Sequence record: KP869100
Reading direction: 5' to 3' (one strand)
Origin: Escherichia typing phage 1
DNA length: 64,000 bases
In this document: positions 5,093 through 20,797 of the stretch, in pieces
How positions within the stretch are numbered: the stretch's first letter is position 1
Layout: each line of letters starts with the position of its first letter
Program-made: the position numbers and the translations under genes
The notes under the pieces: generated by a model
Database searches by the model: none
The model's input: only the letters and a program-made list of their open reading frames with translations
Told to the model about the DNA's origin: nothing

Positions 5093-5635
5093 TTAGAAAA
5101 AGACCTTTAAATCACTCTCTACAATGTTTTCTGTCAGTGTATCCATGATGTCACAAAAAACCTGAATACTGTCGGATTGTTGGATACTTTTAGCAAGTAG
5201 CTCCAATGTTTCATCAAGATAATTTAAATTTGGGTTATCCAGTGAAGGGAGACAAAAAGGTGAATACATAGCGTTGAACTCTGTTGTATAGACCTTTTTA
5301 ATCCAATTTACATCAAAGTACTCTGTAAAGCTTGCTATATTTGACATGTTATCACAAGAATAATCATCATTTAGCTCATCCTCTGGAATGTCAAGTTCTA
5401 AGATAACAATATTTTGAGTTTTCATCTGAAAAGCTGCCGTGATAGTGGCATTTCCTAGAGCTTGCTGGATACCTTCCGATGCTATCTCTTCCTCATCATC
5501 ACCATAGAGTTTATTTTCTGGGTACACGTAAAAATTGCCGTCCATATCCGAACAATTCCATACACCTGATGGTTTATCACCGTTATTAATCAGGTTAATA
5601 AAGTTTTCTTGAGTAGTACCGTGAAAGCATTTCAT
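5093..5635 (-). CDS. highly acidic protein (DNA-mimic-like composition)
   Basis: 180-aa ORF, very rich in D/E with few K/R (runs such as GDDEEEIASEG, DIPEDELNDD); preceded by cassette B2. Confidence 0.55.
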   Translation of the reverse strand: MKCFHGTTQENFINLINNGDKPSGVWNCSDMDGNFYVYPENKLYGDDEEEIASEGIQQALGNATITAAFQMKTQNIVILELDIPEDELNDDYSCDNMSNIASFTEYFDVNWIKKVYTTEFNAMYSPFCLPSLDNPNLNYLDETLELLAKSIQQSDSIQVFCDIMDTLTENIVESDLKVFF

Positions 5636-8648: not shown

Positions 8649-8697
8649 TTTCGATTCTCCAGTTTAGGAAGTGGGCTTGCTTGCCCGTCTGATGCAA

Positions 8698-8726
8698 ATA
8701 GTACGTAAACTTGTTTGGCGTGTCAA
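8698..8726 (-). promoter_or_regulatory. sigma70-like promoter TTGACA-N17-TACTAT
   Basis: -35 (rc TGTCAA) at 8721-8726, -10 (rc ATAGTA) at 8698-8703, 17-nt spacer; followed by a short hairpin and GGAGAA SD. Confidence 0.5.
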
Positions 8727-8894
8727 CGGTTTTTATTAAATATTTTTTGTAAGGTTGGGAAATGAACGGGCGCGCACGACTACCACAAAACAGAACACAA
8801 ATCAAGAATTATTTTTCAACCCGCTACAAATTTTTCTCTTGACTTTTGGGGAGAGGTGGAGTAAGAGGGGGAGAGGGGTTGGTCTGGCTCTCTA

Positions 8895-9090
8895 TAAAAA
8901 CCTACCTGCACGATTCTAAAATGATTTTTCTTGCCCGACCTGAGCGGGGTCTGCACGTTTTGAAAATGAAAAAGCTCTTTGGAGATTACCTGCACAGTTT
9001 GAAAATGAATTTTCTCTTTGGAGTTCAAAATTCTCTCTACAGATTTCTCTACAGAACTCTACCTGCACAATCCTGAAATGAAAAAGCCCT
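8895..9090. repeat. four direct repeats (CCTGCAC-N-TGAAAATGA) in a GC-richer non-coding island
   Basis: acctgcacgattctaaaatga, tctgcacgttttgaaaatga, acctgcacagtttgaaaatga, acctgcacaatcctgaaatga; surrounding G-rich tract ggggagaggtggagtaagagggggagagggg. Confidence 0.6.
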
Positions 9091-9154
9091 CCTTACCTGA
9101 AAAATTTACCAGATAAAGAAGGCTTAGTCTATTGTGAATATTATACAGAGTTTC

Positions 9155-9940
9155 TTAGTTCTTTGCGTCTAAGAAGGTAACTTCTGGTGAAGAGAAGACC
9201 GTCTCGATATCCTCATCAGTTCTTGCATAAATATATGTATCTGCATCACTGCCAAATGTTACGGCTATCCTGTGATTGCTCTTCGACAGGTGGGTAACTA
9301 GAGCGTTACTTAGAGACATCTTCTCAACCGGAGGGTTACTTTGATGTATCTTACCTTTTCTTCGTCTGAAGAGGGTAACTGTATCATCTTTGAACGTTAC
9401 TACACCTGCAAAGTATTCTGGTTCACAGTAGTTATTCCAACCTGAGCGTAACTTGTGGTACATCTCTCCTTCGTAGACATACAGATAAACATCTACACTC
9501 TTCATCACCTGATTAATGATAACTGTGACGGCTTGAGGGTCAAGTCCACCGATACCTGCACCAATCATAGGTAAACCAACCTTCTTCAACTGATTAACTT
9601 CACAGTATCTGTTAAGCTGTTTCAAAGATGACTCTAAAGCACTGTATCGGGCATCTTTACCAGTCTTAAGCTGAGTGTAAAGGTTAGCTATACGACCTTG
9701 TTTTAAACGTGCTACAGAGAAATTACCCAGTAAATTTTCACAGGGTTTGTGTCCTATACCACCTGCATACAGATAAACTTCTGTATCGGTCTCATATGCT
9801 TTTGGGTAAAGTTTAGAAATCTTGTCAGCGATACCTGCACCCATTAAATTCATACAGTTGCAACCGTGACCGATGATGTCAAACTTACCTTTATCAAATG
9901 CGGCAAAGATATCACCATTAATTATTTTTACAATACCCAT
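9155..9940 (-). CDS. macro-domain protein (ADP-ribose binding/processing) with about 90-aa C-terminal extension
   Basis: 261 aa; GDIFAAF..FDIIGHGCNCMNLMGAGIA and GLPMIGAGIGGL resemble the two macro-domain signature blocks. Confidence 0.55.
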   Translation of the reverse strand: MGIVKIINGDIFAAFDKGKFDIIGHGCNCMNLMGAGIADKISKLYPKAYETDTEVYLYAGGIGHKPCENLLGNFSVARLKQGRIANLYTQLKTGKDARYSALESSLKQLNRYCEVNQLKKVGLPMIGAGIGGLDPQAVTVIINQVMKSVDVYLYVYEGEMYHKLRSGWNNYCEPEYFAGVVTFKDDTVTLFRRRKGKIHQSNPPVEKMSLSNALVTHLSKSNHRIAVTFGSDADTYIYARTDEDIETVFSSPEVTFLDAKN

Positions 9941-10141
9941 TTAACATCTCTCCCAAGATTCTTTGTCTTCTGAAGGTTTTACACGTTGTCCTTCGTGGTC
10001 TACCCAGATGCACCCACAACCTTCACAGATTACTGGCATTGCATAACCAGCTTTAAAGTCATCTTCAGTGATAAGACCTTTTAAGTCACCTGTATCACGT
10101 CCGAACATTTCGATAGAACAGTCTTTGCAGAAGTCAGCCAT
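9941..10141 (-). CDS. small Cys-rich protein (putative zinc-binding)
   Basis: Track ORF trimmed to the ATG at 10139-10141; CKDC ... CEGCGC motifs; translationally coupled to the macro gene. Confidence 0.4.
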   Translation of the reverse strand: MADFCKDCSIEMFGRDTGDLKGLITEDDFKAGYAMPVICEGCGCIWVDHEGQRVKPSEDKESWERC

Positions 10142-10361
10142 TGATAATTGCCTCTTGAATGATGATACCTTTACCACAACGGCTTTTAAAATCTTCCAAC
10201 GGTTGGGAGATGAAGCCACGCAAGCAATCACTAAACACTAAGTTTTTCCTGTAGGCTATCACATCGTTTGCTGTAAACGGGATGACTTCATTTCTTCCAA
10301 TGAATACTGCTGACCGGATGAGTTTCCGTGTCTTTTTATCTCTGGCTAGAATTACTCTCAT
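10134..10361 (-). CDS. hypothetical small protein
   Basis: 75-aa ORF; overlaps neighbours by a few nt. Confidence 0.4.
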   Translation of the reverse strand: MRVILARDKKTRKLIRSAVFIGRNEVIPFTANDVIAYRKNLVFSDCLRGFISQPLEDFKSRCGKGIIIQEAIING

Positions 10362-10701
10362 AGTTTACCTTCTCAGTTAGCTCATATAAATCAACATGCT
10401 CAATACTATCAATGTTGATATCAATCTTTTTGAAGCGTTCTATCACTTCGTTGTCAGTCATCCATATCAGACACCAATGATTCTGAATGGATTCTTCAAG
10501 AAGGTCAACACAATCTTTAAAAGTTTTTGTATCACTTCTCGTTCCAACTACTGCGATTGTTCCATATAGCCACCCACCATTGCCATAAGATACTTGCGCT
10601 ACGCCAACTTCTTTACCTTTCTCGTAGTAAACGGCTACAAAGTCTCTTCCATTAATCTGCATTTGTAAGTTCCTCTGTTGGTAATTCACCATTTTCAGCA
10701 A
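10336..10701 (-). CDS. hypothetical protein
   Basis: 121-aa ORF; start uncertain (internal Met at 10662 possible). Confidence 0.45.
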   Translation of the reverse strand: MLKMVNYQQRNLQMQINGRDFVAVYYEKGKEVGVAQVSYGNGGWLYGTIAVVGTRSDTKTFKDCVDLLEESIQNHWCLIWMTDNEVIERFKKIDINIDSIEHVDLYELTEKVNYESNSSQR

Positions 10702-18073: not shown

Positions 18074-19855
18074 TTAAAGCTGCTTGTCAATATTATTTCG
18101 AATATCACCAAGAGTTGTGTAACCGTACTGCTCAGAGTCGCTAAAGACTAAACGTAAAGCACAAGCTGGATGTTCAAGTGCATCTGCAAAGCTCTGGAAT
18201 CCATAGCCATCTACAGCTTTCAAATTCTCACCATCCCACATAGGTGCTACACCACCAAAGGCAGATTTCTTAACACCACTATCTGTTTTAGGGTCTTTTG
18301 CAAGCATAATCTCTTTGCCACCAATGCTTGCAAGAGTTGCTTTGACAGCAAATGCAAAGGTGTCACGAGTCATGTACTGGTAAGTGTAAGAGCCTACACC
18401 AAACACCACGTTAGAGCTTGCAAACCCCATTTCATACAGACGCTTCAGGATTTCGTTTGCACGTTCCAACGTGATAGAGTCGCCATAGATAAGTCCAATG
18501 TGCTCATCCAGTACCTTAAAACCTTTAGAGTTGATAGTTCCTCCAAAGATGTTATACAAGGTCTTAATAGCTCCATCAATCTCTGCTACAGGGCGTGTTA
18601 CAACGTTTGCAGAACCAACCATATAAGCGTTCTTCAACATCACTGTATCAGCAACTTCAAAGTCTTCTCTGTCAACAACCATTTCGTAGCCTTCTGACAG
18701 TAGCCATCCAGCAATACCATAGTTGATGTTTTCAAGCTTCATGTTAAGAACAGCATTCAACATTGTGTCACTGACTTCCAGCTTGCTTAGGTGCTCGTAA
18801 TAAGCCTTCTTAGCACATTCTAAGTGGATTGCTTTATAACCTGTGACAATATGTACAGGGTCTCCAGAGTCAGGGCGAATTACCAGTTTGCCATCACGTT
18901 CCATAATTTCTTTACGAAGTGCTGGTAAGATTTCTGACACAGTTCTCCAGAAGTTATAAGTATCTGAAACAATACTTGCAATACCTGTTGGGTAAGTTTC
19001 TGTTAAGAAACGACGGAAGGTTTGTAACTCACCTTTAAAGCGTCTTTCTTCTTCAATCAACTCATTACCACCTTCCCAAGCAATGTTTGCACACATTACA
19101 GAGTGCTCAGTGGCTGGTACAGAGCTACCAATATCAGAGATTGGGTAGGACTGTCCATAGATTCGTTTAGCCGTGTATACAGCAGGGAAGCTATCAGTCC
19201 CTTTAAAGCTGGTTAAGTGACCTACAGCGTTAAATGCGTCATCAGTAAAGCCGGACATACCACGCATAGCAAAATCATGGCACTGATAAGGTAAATGTAA
19301 GTCATTGTCACAAGTAAGGTCAGCCCACTTCTTACAGATGCGTTTGTAATGCAATGCAATAGTTGCAATGGTGCAAGCCTTCCAAATTTCAGCAGAGAAA
19401 GCATCTTCCAGATAACCTGCTACCCAATGAAAACCTGAAACAGTGTTCTGAAAGACAATCATCGGGACACGCATTGGAACAACTGTGCCTTCTTCTACAG
19501 CGTATACTTCAACTGGTAGATAACCTAAGTCGTGAAGTGCTTCCCAATGCTCTCGACCGATAGCATCTTTACCCAGAACACCATTCATGACTTCTAAGAT
19601 TTCATCAATGGCTTCTTTTTTATCACGTTCAAAGAAAGTGGCATTCCAGTGGTCTATCAAGTAATCTTTAACAAAACGTTGAATACCAAAAGCCACTACA
19701 CCGTCAATTGCTAAAGGGCTGTTAAACCATTTATCACTACGTGGTGTCAGGTTGAACATCAAGTATTCTGTTGCACTAGGATACTGGTAAACATGACCAG
19801 ATTTGTAAGCATCTGCATTTAAACCTGCTGGTACTGCATAAAGTGATTTAGTCAT
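18074..19855 (-). CDS. nicotinamide phosphoribosyltransferase-like enzyme (NAMPT/NadV family; possibly Namat)
   Basis: 593 aa; N-terminus AVPAGLNADAYKSGHVYQYP typical of the NAMPT family; adjacent to a Prs-like gene. Confidence 0.75.
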   Translation of the reverse strand: MTKSLYAVPAGLNADAYKSGHVYQYPSATEYLMFNLTPRSDKWFNSPLAIDGVVAFGIQRFVKDYLIDHWNATFFERDKKEAIDEILEVMNGVLGKDAIGREHWEALHDLGYLPVEVYAVEEGTVVPMRVPMIVFQNTVSGFHWVAGYLEDAFSAEIWKACTIATIALHYKRICKKWADLTCDNDLHLPYQCHDFAMRGMSGFTDDAFNAVGHLTSFKGTDSFPAVYTAKRIYGQSYPISDIGSSVPATEHSVMCANIAWEGGNELIEEERRFKGELQTFRRFLTETYPTGIASIVSDTYNFWRTVSEILPALRKEIMERDGKLVIRPDSGDPVHIVTGYKAIHLECAKKAYYEHLSKLEVSDTMLNAVLNMKLENINYGIAGWLLSEGYEMVVDREDFEVADTVMLKNAYMVGSANVVTRPVAEIDGAIKTLYNIFGGTINSKGFKVLDEHIGLIYGDSITLERANEILKRLYEMGFASSNVVFGVGSYTYQYMTRDTFAFAVKATLASIGGKEIMLAKDPKTDSGVKKSAFGGVAPMWDGENLKAVDGYGFQSFADALEHPACALRLVFSDSEQYGYTTLGDIRNNIDKQL

Positions 19856-19900: not shown

Positions 19901-20797
19901 TCAATCAAGGTTTGCTACAGTAACTTGACCATAATGTGTTAAGCCACGGTCTTTAGCTTCCCCTAAAGAGTTTGTAGTGTAGATATGGTCAATACCATTG
20001 TCAAGAAGGTTTTCAACATCTTTAGAGAAGATACCATGTGTTACATAGAGTTCCACACGTTTTGTACCTGCTTCACGGAGATGCTTAGCTGCTTCTATGA
20101 AGGTTCGACCACCATCACAGATATCATCCAGAATCATGACGGTTTTATCTGTCAAATCAACATCATCAAGGATTCGCATACCAGTAATTTCACCAGTCTT
20201 AAGGTTACGCACCTTAGACATTGTGATATATGGTTTATCCACCTCTTTAGCGGTCTCTGCAACCTTCTTAGCAGCACCTGCATCTGGGGCTACTAAGTAA
20301 TCAACCAGTGGGTCATTTGCATAGTGGACTGCAATCTCCTTTTGAGGAATACTCTGGAAGCAGTTAAACAGGTTATCTGGTACATAGCTGTGAGGGTCAA
20401 CTGCACAGACTGCGCCAAATCCCATTGCATTAATCTGTTTAGCAAAAACCTTTAAAGCTGCTGCGTCACCTTTAAACATGTGACGGTCATATCGTGCATT
20501 TGGTAAGTAGTAAAAGATGACAGTCTTTAAAGCATAATCATGAGGAATTAAATCATCAATTGCTTCTTTAGCAAGTGCCACAGCAAACAATGTGTCCTTG
20601 TCATAACCTTTTACAATCATAATCACATTGTTGATGGATGATGCTGCATAAGCAGTAAAATCAACAAACTCTGGCGAAAAGTGTCCACCAATCTCACCAG
20701 AAGGGAATTGGACGATGTTAAACTCTTCTTCATGAGTCCCTTTAGTTGGTGAATGAACTGTAACACGGATAGATGTTTTCATAGTTTTCTCTCTCAA
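19901..20797 (-). CDS. ribose-phosphate pyrophosphokinase-like enzyme (Prs family; possibly Adps)
   Basis: 298 aa; VMILDDICDGGRTF matches the Prs ribose-phosphate binding loop; N-terminal half diverges from canonical Prs. Confidence 0.75.
   Translation of the reverse strand: MREKTMKTSIRVTVHSPTKGTHEEEFNIVQFPSGEIGGHFSPEFVDFTAYAASSINNVIMIVKGYDKDTLFAVALAKEAIDDLIPHDYALKTVIFYYLPNARYDRHMFKGDAAALKVFAKQINAMGFGAVCAVDPHSYVPDNLFNCFQSIPQKEIAVHYANDPLVDYLVAPDAGAAKKVAETAKEVDKPYITMSKVRNLKTGEITGMRILDDVDLTDKTVMILDDICDGGRTFIEAAKHLREAGTKRVELYVTHGIFSKDVENLLDNGIDHIYTTNSLGEAKDRGLTHYGQVTVANLD

Follow-up and report, generated by a model that had tools for sequence, protein, structure and literature searches.

A Gln-type macro protein with an orphan C-terminal domain in a NARP1-carrying Felixounavirus: a candidate early counter-defense enzyme

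Escherichia typing phage 1 (sequence record KP869100) carries a gene for a two-domain macro protein within the 64,000-nucleotide stretch of its DNA analyzed here, which we refer to as the window. The gene occupies positions 9155-9940 on the minus strand as an ATG-started open reading frame (ORF) of 261 codons encoding 261 amino acids, and these are exactly the coordinates at which a sequence-only reading of the window had placed a macro-domain protein with a C-terminal extension. Its counterparts are ORF13 of Felix O1, g95 of Bas63 and AKE47278.1 of KP869113, with the protein being 100% identical to the KP869113 entry and 97% identical to Bas63 g95. The region around the gene shares 100% identity with Escherichia coli O157 typing phage 15 (KP869113, genus Felixounavirus), 94.7% with Salmonella phage Felix O1, and approximately 91% with the BASEL phage Bas63 (JohannRWettstein); judged by these identities, the source phage is a Felixounavirus. 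The enzyme family is already known, annotated, and partly characterized. Existing records name the gene 'macro domain protein' (KP869113), 'phosphatase' (Felix O1 RefSeq) and 'putative phosphatase' bas63_0095 (Bas63), and the KhF2 record ties it to the T4 '17.5 kDa protein', which is Tk.4. What is new is modest, namely the union of a predicted Gln-type macro hydrolase with a C-terminal domain that is an orphan confined to the Ounavirinae, in a phage equipped with NARP1, a pathway for NAD+ reconstitution, as well. The fold, motifs, homology, conservation, gene context, and purifying selection described below come from our own analysis, and the enzyme activities and phenotypes from the literature on homologues.

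The macro domain comprises residues 1-157 (9470-9940, minus strand). Residues 25-141 match the Pfam Macro family (PF01661) at 32.3 bits, above the gathering cutoff of 22 (E = 1e-7), and the protein matches PHROG 335 at E = 4e-113. An AlphaFold2 model built from 31 homologues (mean pLDDT 90.1, pTM 0.88) has the three-layer alpha/beta/alpha arrangement of macro proteins, and the hidden Markov model (HMM) match and predicted structure together confirm the macro fold and its ADP-ribose-binding loops at the level of a model. The sequence-only reading, which had proposed this fold and named its absence from a predicted structure as grounds for abandoning the idea, thus holds on this point. The two sequence blocks on which it relied correspond to residues 9-38 and 122-133 and coincide with invariant or near-invariant columns of the family (H25, G26, N28, C29, M33, G34, A35, G36, and A38 in the first; P124, G127, A128, G129, I130, G132, L133, and D134 in and beside the second). 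Loop 1, H25-GCNCMNLMGAGIA-38 (9827-9868, minus strand), includes N28, the counterpart of N23 in PhiKZ AdfM, where an N23A mutation lowers activity (PMC13309987). In one alignment of the family (A4), N28, C29, M33, G36, and A38 of this loop are invariant, with H25 and G34 conserved in at least 90% of sequences. Loop 2 is the Gly-rich diphosphate-binding loop P124-MIGAGIGGLD-134 (9539-9571, minus strand); P124, G127, and G129 are invariant in a 31-sequence alignment (A2), of which only P124 and G127 remain so in A4. Between the two loops lies the motif N86-L-Y-T-Q90 (9671-9685, minus strand), in which HMM alignments put Q90 where TARG1 (K84) and DarG (K80) have their catalytic lysine. Across the 18 aligned family members, among them T4 Tk.4 and two Adpp proteins, N86 and Q90 never vary. 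The subfamily signature, H-x-[CA]-N-C...M-G-x-G-x-A followed by N-[LV]-x-x-Q, is thus present in full, with N28, C29, M33, G36, A38, N86, and Q90 all invariant in this 18-member alignment.

To place the domain among macro proteins of known structure, a profile of the 18 family members was compared with the PDB. The matches were Bacteroides BT1257 (E = 8e-22), TARG1 (E = 1.5e-19), Streptomyces coelicolor SCO6735 (5e3b, E = 2e-19), Mycobacterium tuberculosis (Mtb) DarG (E = 6e-18), yeast Poa1p (E = 1e-17), and ALC1 (E = 5e-4). On this profile evidence the domain is assigned to the ALC1-like/TARG1-like class and not to MacroD/YmdB, which had been suggested beforehand as a comparison and are not the closest families. 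Within this class, Q90 stands in place of lysine in the HMM alignments to TARG1, Mtb DarG, and Thermus aquaticus (Taq) DarG. Because it replaces the catalytic lysine that follows the beta-strand (K84 in the L-I-T-K motif of TARG1; K80 in the N-F-P-T-K motif of DarG), the protein falls outside the Lys-type DarG/TARG1 group. Given the invariance of N86 and Q90 across the 18 members, the alignment indicates that Q90 is not a degenerate feature. A precedent for such an active site is SCO6735, a member of the same class that also carries Gln for the catalytic Lys. Its Gln85 lies at the position of Q90, an equivalence that rests on both residues aligning to TARG1 K84, and is essential, with the Q85A mutant being inactive (PMC9411070). 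Wild-type SCO6735 cleaves thymidine-linked ADP-ribose off DNA and gives protection against DarT, and a water-mediated mechanism has been proposed (PMC9411070). Unlike the phage protein, SCO6735 is a bacterial housekeeping or stress protein and lacks the C-terminal beta-rich domain.

Homology to characterized members places the protein in the phage Poa1p-like macro subfamily (PHROG 335), which contains T4 Tk.4/AdfM and Adpp, both characterized in 2025-26. The closest characterized relative is T4 Tk.4, with 35% identity over residues 3-157 (82 bits, E = 3e-24). It was the single match of a transposon screen on DarTG2, its clean deletion sensitizes T4 to this system, and the gene was named adfM (bioRxiv 10.1101/2025.11.20.689424). 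The two proteins share the H-G-C-N-C...M-G-x-G-[IV]-A loop, the N-L-Y-T-Q motif, and the IGAGIG loop 2, and both are encoded in the early region of a virulent enterobacterial myovirus. Tk.4 differs in its length of 155 amino acids, stopping right after the last macro strand with no C-terminal domain, and in its neighbors, vs and tk.3. The anti-DarTG2 phenotype is documented for T4 only. The second characterized relative is Adpp of Vibrio phage Gary, a Poa1p-like macro protein encoded between the NARP1 genes Adps and Namat, which converts ADP-ribose-1''-phosphate (ADPR-1''P), the product of RES-type NAD+ phosphorolysis, to ADP-ribose (ADPR) and thereby allows NARP1 to rebuild NAD+; it is required against the RES-type defense aRES (bioRxiv 10.64898/2026.01.28.702374). 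The same Adps-macro-Namat operon is found in Vibrio phages K460 and JSF10, and the K460 macro protein shares 28% identity with the protein described here (50 bits, E = 2e-12), including H-x-x-N-C and N-L-x-x-Q. N28 and Q90 are conserved in Adpp, and both Gary and the present phage encode Adps and Namat. In contrast, Adpp is a single domain of approximately 150 amino acids, sits between Adps and Namat, and has the loop 2 sequence MGCDRAGGSW. Loop 2 of the present protein (IGAGIGGLD) is nearer to the IGAGIG of Tk.4 and the LGVGNGGLDW of DarG than to that of Adpp. A rough neighbor-joining tree of the macro cores did not separate Tk.4-like proteins from NARP1-associated Adpp, and phylogeny was rejected as a means of assigning the substrate.

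DarG models are the only matches in the PADLOC and NCBIfam libraries (E = 4e-13 and 1.5e-12, respectively), and they cover the macro half only: positions 18-145 of 329 in the PADLOC model, and positions 4-152 of 338 in the NCBIfam equivalog NF048014, which scores 47.5 bits against a cutoff of 250, well short of a full-length DarG. DarG (PDB 5m3i, 5m31, 7omu) carries its catalytic Lys in N-F-P-T-K where Gln is found here, and its DarT-binding domain is unrelated to the C-terminal domain of the phage protein. Small hypothetical proteins and spanins make up the annotated neighborhood of the macro gene, in which no ADP-ribosyltransferase occurs, so that the darT gene that adjoins darG has no equivalent at this locus. 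Yeast Poa1p (PDB 6lfq), whose role is the clearing of tRNA-splicing by-products, and Bacteroides BT1257 (PDB 2fg1/2afc) are cellular single-domain proteins, unlike the protein here. PhiKZ gp104 AdfM, which has been characterized biochemically, belongs to an unrelated subfamily (PMC13309987).

The second half of the protein is a beta-rich domain of 104 residues (158-261; 9158-9469, minus strand) consisting of one helix, six beta-strands, and a final helix, all confidently predicted in the full-length AlphaFold2 model. The sequence-only reading had described approximately 90 residues of unrecognized function, and this description is borne out, at a slightly greater length. Pfam returned only NAC at E = 0.08, short of the cutoff; the C-terminal 105 residues alone matched nothing in NCBIfam; and a profile search of the PDB returned only BamB (E = 0.086). 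Since the sole Foldseek match in BFVD was the orthologue from the SUSP2 group, at a poor TM-score of 0.39, the fold is not independently corroborated. When 1.84 billion representative proteins were searched exhaustively by HMM, the domain turned up in no other setting than fusion to this macro domain, apart from fragments of these proteins. Multi-repeat proteins from that search, including tandem beta-propeller-like repeats, were spurious matches to a single, repeatedly recognized beta-hairpin motif. Two further candidates were rejected, a degenerate second macro domain (hhalign probability 0.1%) and a nucleic-acid binder recognizable by charge (net charge from -4 to +5 across the family).

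The two-domain architecture extends across the Ounavirinae, from Felixounavirus to the SUSP2 group (70% identity), Mooglevirus (64%), Si3-like phages (41%), and Kolesnikvirus (260 amino acids). Metagenomic relatives at 33% identity retain both the architecture and the gene order rIIA-rIIB-...-PNK-...-macro. Across relatives whose macro parts hold 82% to 41% identity, the C-terminal part drops from 51% to 15%. The ratio of nonsynonymous to synonymous substitution rates (dN/dS) is 0.04-0.16 for the C-terminal domain and 0-0.012 for the macro part, and nonsynonymous change (dN) is approximately ten times faster in the former. The C-terminal domain is therefore genuinely coding and under purifying selection. 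Its faster evolution and rigid attachment to the enzyme suggest recognition of a partner or substrate. Two relatives depart from the pattern, each of them possibly a pseudogene in nature or else the product of faulty assembly: P0008 (179 amino acids, 15 member sequences) is truncated by a frameshift to the macro domain only, and in P0050 an internal deletion fuses loop 1 straight to loop 2.

Transcription at the locus runs from high to low coordinates, and the macro gene ends a minus-strand series of closely packed genes, among them NrdG, Adps, Namat, rIIA, rIIB, PNK, and the spanins. A Rho-independent terminator with a 17-pair stem followed by a T-run lies 30 nucleotides past the stop codon (9125 to 9084, minus strand). 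It corresponds to terminator t13 of Felix O1, for which a dG of -21.8 kcal/mol was reported (PMC3185647, Table 2), and is also annotated in KhF2. The sequence-only reading had taken the gene to be the first after a promoter island. This is the wrong way around, with the gene closing its unit and both the terminator and a 506-bp spacer (8649-9154) lying downstream. As a promoter island for the macro gene the spacer is wrongly oriented, and its lone sigma-70-like site (8726 to 8698) faces the next gene. The label of early gene fares better, as the Felix O1 ORF13 transcript is maximal at 5 min by reverse transcription PCR (PMC3185647). A counterpart of the predicted Felix O1 promoter 'P11' (TTGACA-N13-TGATTTATA) is found at 10387-10412 on the minus strand as TTGATA-N13-TGATTTATA, within the 3' end of the ORF at 10336-10701. 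A working promoter at this site would transcribe ORF11, ORF12, and ORF13, the macro gene, as one unit of three genes.

Immediately upstream, a 66-residue Cys-rich ORF (C5xxC8 ... C39xxC42xC44; PHROG 2210) occupies 9941-10141 on the minus strand. Its TAA stop codon (9941-9943) abuts the macro ATG (9938-9940), and the Shine-Dalgarno sequence of the macro gene (GGAG, 9950-9953) is located inside its 3' end. The peptide thus exists, as the sequence-only reading had claimed; it precedes the macro gene, however, and does not follow it as had been stated, and the proposed coupling does not hold because the neighbor is not conserved. We rejected the ORF as a functional partner, given that it is not kept beside the macro gene beyond the genus level. 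In Kolesnikvirus the position is taken by a putative lipoprotein ORF overlapping an annotated Rz-like spanin, and among distant relatives one encodes a CxxC peptide that is not homologous (E = 0.5) and another an ORF that is not Cys-rich. Searches of the PDB and NCBIfam gave no match for the Cys-rich peptide.

Both NARP1 genes are found on the same strand 8 kb upstream of the macro gene. Namat (18074-19855, minus strand) is NAMPT-like, with Pfam NAPRTase and NAMPT_N domains and 98% identity to Bas63 g80, and Adps (19901-20782, minus strand) is Prs-like, with Pfam Pribosyltran and Pribosyl_synth domains and 77% identity to Bas63 g79. The differences between Adps and Bas63 g79 are concentrated in the N-terminal 180 residues, a pattern that suggests a mosaic or exchanged N-terminal half. 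NARP1 was discovered, and its function shown, in Bas63, with ADPR as its substrate. An ADPR/NAD theme had been suspected from the NAMPT/Prs pair, and its identity as Namat and Adps bears the suspicion out; the two are possible pathway partners of the macro protein. In Bas63 numbering, 14 genes separate g95 from g79/g80, and the genes between include rIIA/rIIB, PNK, and the spanins. The study that described NARP1-AP counted a macro gene as Adpp when it lay no more than two genes from the Adps/Namat pair (bioRxiv 10.64898/2026.01.28.702374). The present gene shares a genome with NARP1 and lies beyond that distance.

Several features of the flanking DNA stand apart from the gene itself. The downstream spacer contains four direct copies of CTGCACnnTTnnnAAATGA (8889-9096, with starts at 8906, 8951, 8990, and 9063), which sit in longer repeats of 34-36 nucleotides and are absent from the rest of the window; Bas63 and KhF2 conserve them. 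The T-tail of terminator t13 overlaps with the last copy, and the arrangement may represent a protein-binding array. At 8836-8880 the spacer also has a stretch made up of purines alone on the plus strand, GGGGAGAGGTGGAGTAAGAGGGGGAGAGGGG, with pyrimidines alone on the strand that is transcribed. A structured RNA in the spacer was rejected (best Rfam E = 0.23, fold z-score -0.94). The non-coding gap after the macro gene measures 460 bp in Kolesnikvirus (Erwinia phage vEam_PM_27, 3780-4240) and approximately 100-140 bp in metagenomic relatives, and the spacer is therefore variable within the lineage. Beyond it, a promoter-like array extends on the minus strand from 8726 down to about 2600, with 32 sites against 20.3 +/- 4.8 in shuffled sequence. 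It comprises approximately 12 small ORFs (65-180 amino acids), each following a spacer of about 90 bp with a sigma-70-like site (TTGACA/TTTACA-17-TAnnnT), and looks like a series of single-gene early units. All of these ORFs are annotated as hypothetical, and the four searched against Pfam gave no match.

Our favored explanation, held tentatively at a probability of about 0.4, is that the protein is an early, non-essential counter-defense enzyme whose main target is ADP-ribose that DarT2-type toxins attach to thymidine in phage single-stranded DNA. We infer this substrate from the homologues; it would make the protein the Ounavirinae counterpart of T4 Tk.4/AdfM. In the proposed mechanism, the two glycine-rich loops of the macro domain would bind the ADP-ribose moiety, N28 and the invariant Q90 would position the distal ribose, and water, in place of a catalytic lysine, would hydrolyze the group on ribose C1'' by a Gln-type mechanism as for SCO6735. 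The same active site may also dephosphorylate ADPR-1''P. Macro domains of this class take several C1''-linked substrates, and both activities could therefore share one enzyme. The C-terminal domain is envisaged as a lineage-specific accessory module packed on the macro domain, and we infer, by analogy with the second domain of DarG, that it most plausibly binds a partner such as the toxin, the DNA substrate, or a replication protein. A role in reversing ADP-ribosylation-based immunity or in processing ADPR molecules had been guessed from the letters alone, and for either there is precedent among the homologues, in Tk.4/AdfM (DarTG2) and Adpp (NARP1). Bas63 g95 is dispensable in laboratory strains and in two defense backgrounds (TerY-P and AVAST type 4), with fitness values of +0.6 to +1.1 (PhageMaP), which fits a conditional anti-defense gene.

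Several points weigh against this explanation. All of the evidence on activity and phenotype comes from homologues and none from the Ounavirinae orthologues, so that its transfer would be by analogy; for T4 Tk.4 the evidence is confined to genetics, and that protein has no C-terminal domain. The mixing of Tk.4-like and Adpp proteins in the neighbor-joining tree means that the substrate is not assignable by sequence alone. The role proposed for the C-terminal domain is only an analogy, one that neither sequence nor charge backs, since the domain shows no similarity to the toxin-binding half of DarG and its charge, as given above, is inconsistent across the family. The Bas63 PhageMaP preprint makes no mention of DarTG, and its panel shows no sign of RES-type systems. 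Finally, the phage carries NARP1, which gives a phosphatase an obvious use. On balance, sequence similarity and loop 2 lean toward the Tk.4/AdfM role, and genomic logic leans toward the Adpp role, given NARP1 in the phage and two further features of the family, a member near NAMPT and a cREC fusion, described next.

The strongest competitor, which we regard as a real possibility, is that the gene is the separated part of a NARP1-AP system, an Adpp-type ADPR-1''P phosphatase that feeds the phage's own Adps and Namat to rebuild NAD+. aRES, a RES-type defense, phosphorolyzes NAD+ to nicotinamide and ADPR-1''P. The latter is of no use to NARP1, which on its own does not overcome aRES, and it is the conversion of ADPR-1''P to ADPR by an enzyme such as Gary Adpp that is required to do so. 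The window encodes the orthologues of Bas63 g79/g80, homologues of the macro protein are found in the K460 and JSF10 operons, and in Pseudomonas phage phiK7A1 a family member is located three genes from a NAMPT gene. A metagenomic family member (P0026, 339 amino acids) is fused to a cREC_REC cyclic-phosphate-processing receiver domain (PF20274), and in Bas63-infected cells ADPR-PP decays to ADPR-cyclic-phosphate. The fusion suggests a two-step route in some phages, from ADPR-cyclic-phosphate to ADPR-1''P and on to ADPR. An enzyme of this kind could also salvage NARP1 by-products derived from ADPR-cyclic-phosphate. The phosphatase role is compatible with the favored explanation, as one active site could serve both substrates. 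Against a phosphatase role stand the distance of 15 genes from the macro gene to NARP1, outside the two-gene limit, a similarity that is weaker with Adpp (50 bits) than with T4 Tk.4 (82 bits), and a loop 2 unlike that of Adpp. T4 also has a family member and, to our knowledge, lacks NARP1, so the family is not tied to this pathway.

It is unlikely that the main substrate lies elsewhere, as ADP-ribose on proteins or RNA (for instance where ADP-ribosyltransferase defenses of the host had left marks), as ADPR-1''P or Appr>p arising from phage RNA repair, or as ADPR-derived immune signals. TARG1 and SCO6735, of the same structural class, also act on proteins, and a survey argues that phage macro domains mainly target soluble ADP-ribose derivatives (PMC9503650); the activities demonstrated for homologues in the subfamily, however, are of other kinds, and the examined part of the window encodes no ADP-ribosyltransferase partner. 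A link to RNA repair could be seen in the PNK gene of the same block (Bas63 g87) and in Bas63 gp107, whose orthologue lies at 5093-5635 on the minus strand and for which the PhageMaP preprint notes a weak structural likeness to the NAD-binding domain of RNA 2'-phosphotransferase (Tpt1/KptA). If this resemblance is real, the protein would make ADPR-cyclic-phosphate that feeds a Poa1p-type phosphatase. At E <= 0.01, however, no Tpt1/KptA Pfam domain was found in the gp107 orthologue or in the proteins of the PNK block, and we rejected a Tpt1/KptA-like partner on this basis.

A combined reading, in which a single bifunctional factor both erases DarT2 marks and turns the ADPR-1''P produced by RES into ADPR for NARP1, with the C-terminal domain binding or blocking a host defense protein or tethering the enzyme to its substrate, appears similarly improbable as a whole; by analogy, it would parallel the enzyme-plus-binder logic of DarG in a phage protein. 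Least probable is a non-catalytic ADP-ribose binder that sequesters ADPR molecules or blocks the toxin, with the C-terminal domain as an interaction surface: Q in place of K at the catalytic position, the inhibition of DarT through interaction by catalytically dead SCO6735, DarG, and TARG1 (PMC9411070), and the name 'high-affinity ADP-ribose binding module' in the records of some close relatives speak for it, but Gln-type SCO6735 is active and depends on that Gln, Gary Adpp is an active phosphatase and the K460 and JSF10 homologues carry the same Gln, and the family-wide conservation of N28, Q90, and both loops argues for a conserved chemistry.

Felix O1-like phages are widely used in Salmonella and E. 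coli typing, biocontrol, and therapy. If the favored explanation is correct and DarT2 marks are erased, the counter-defense known from Tk.4/AdfM would extend to a second major lineage of myoviruses, and Gln-type macrodomains would gain support as a general phage answer to DNA ADP-ribosylation. If instead the protein yields ADPR from ADPR-1''P, Felixounaviruses would already hold an unlinked NARP1-AP, and the figure of 15% published for NARP1 phages with an associated macro protein, being based on adjacent genes only, would therefore understate its spread. Bas63 is an available model phage in which both of these published counter-defense roles can be tested directly, and the C-terminal domain offers a compact, conserved, and experimentally tractable orphan. 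In either role, the gene would help to predict host range against strains bearing DarTG or RES.

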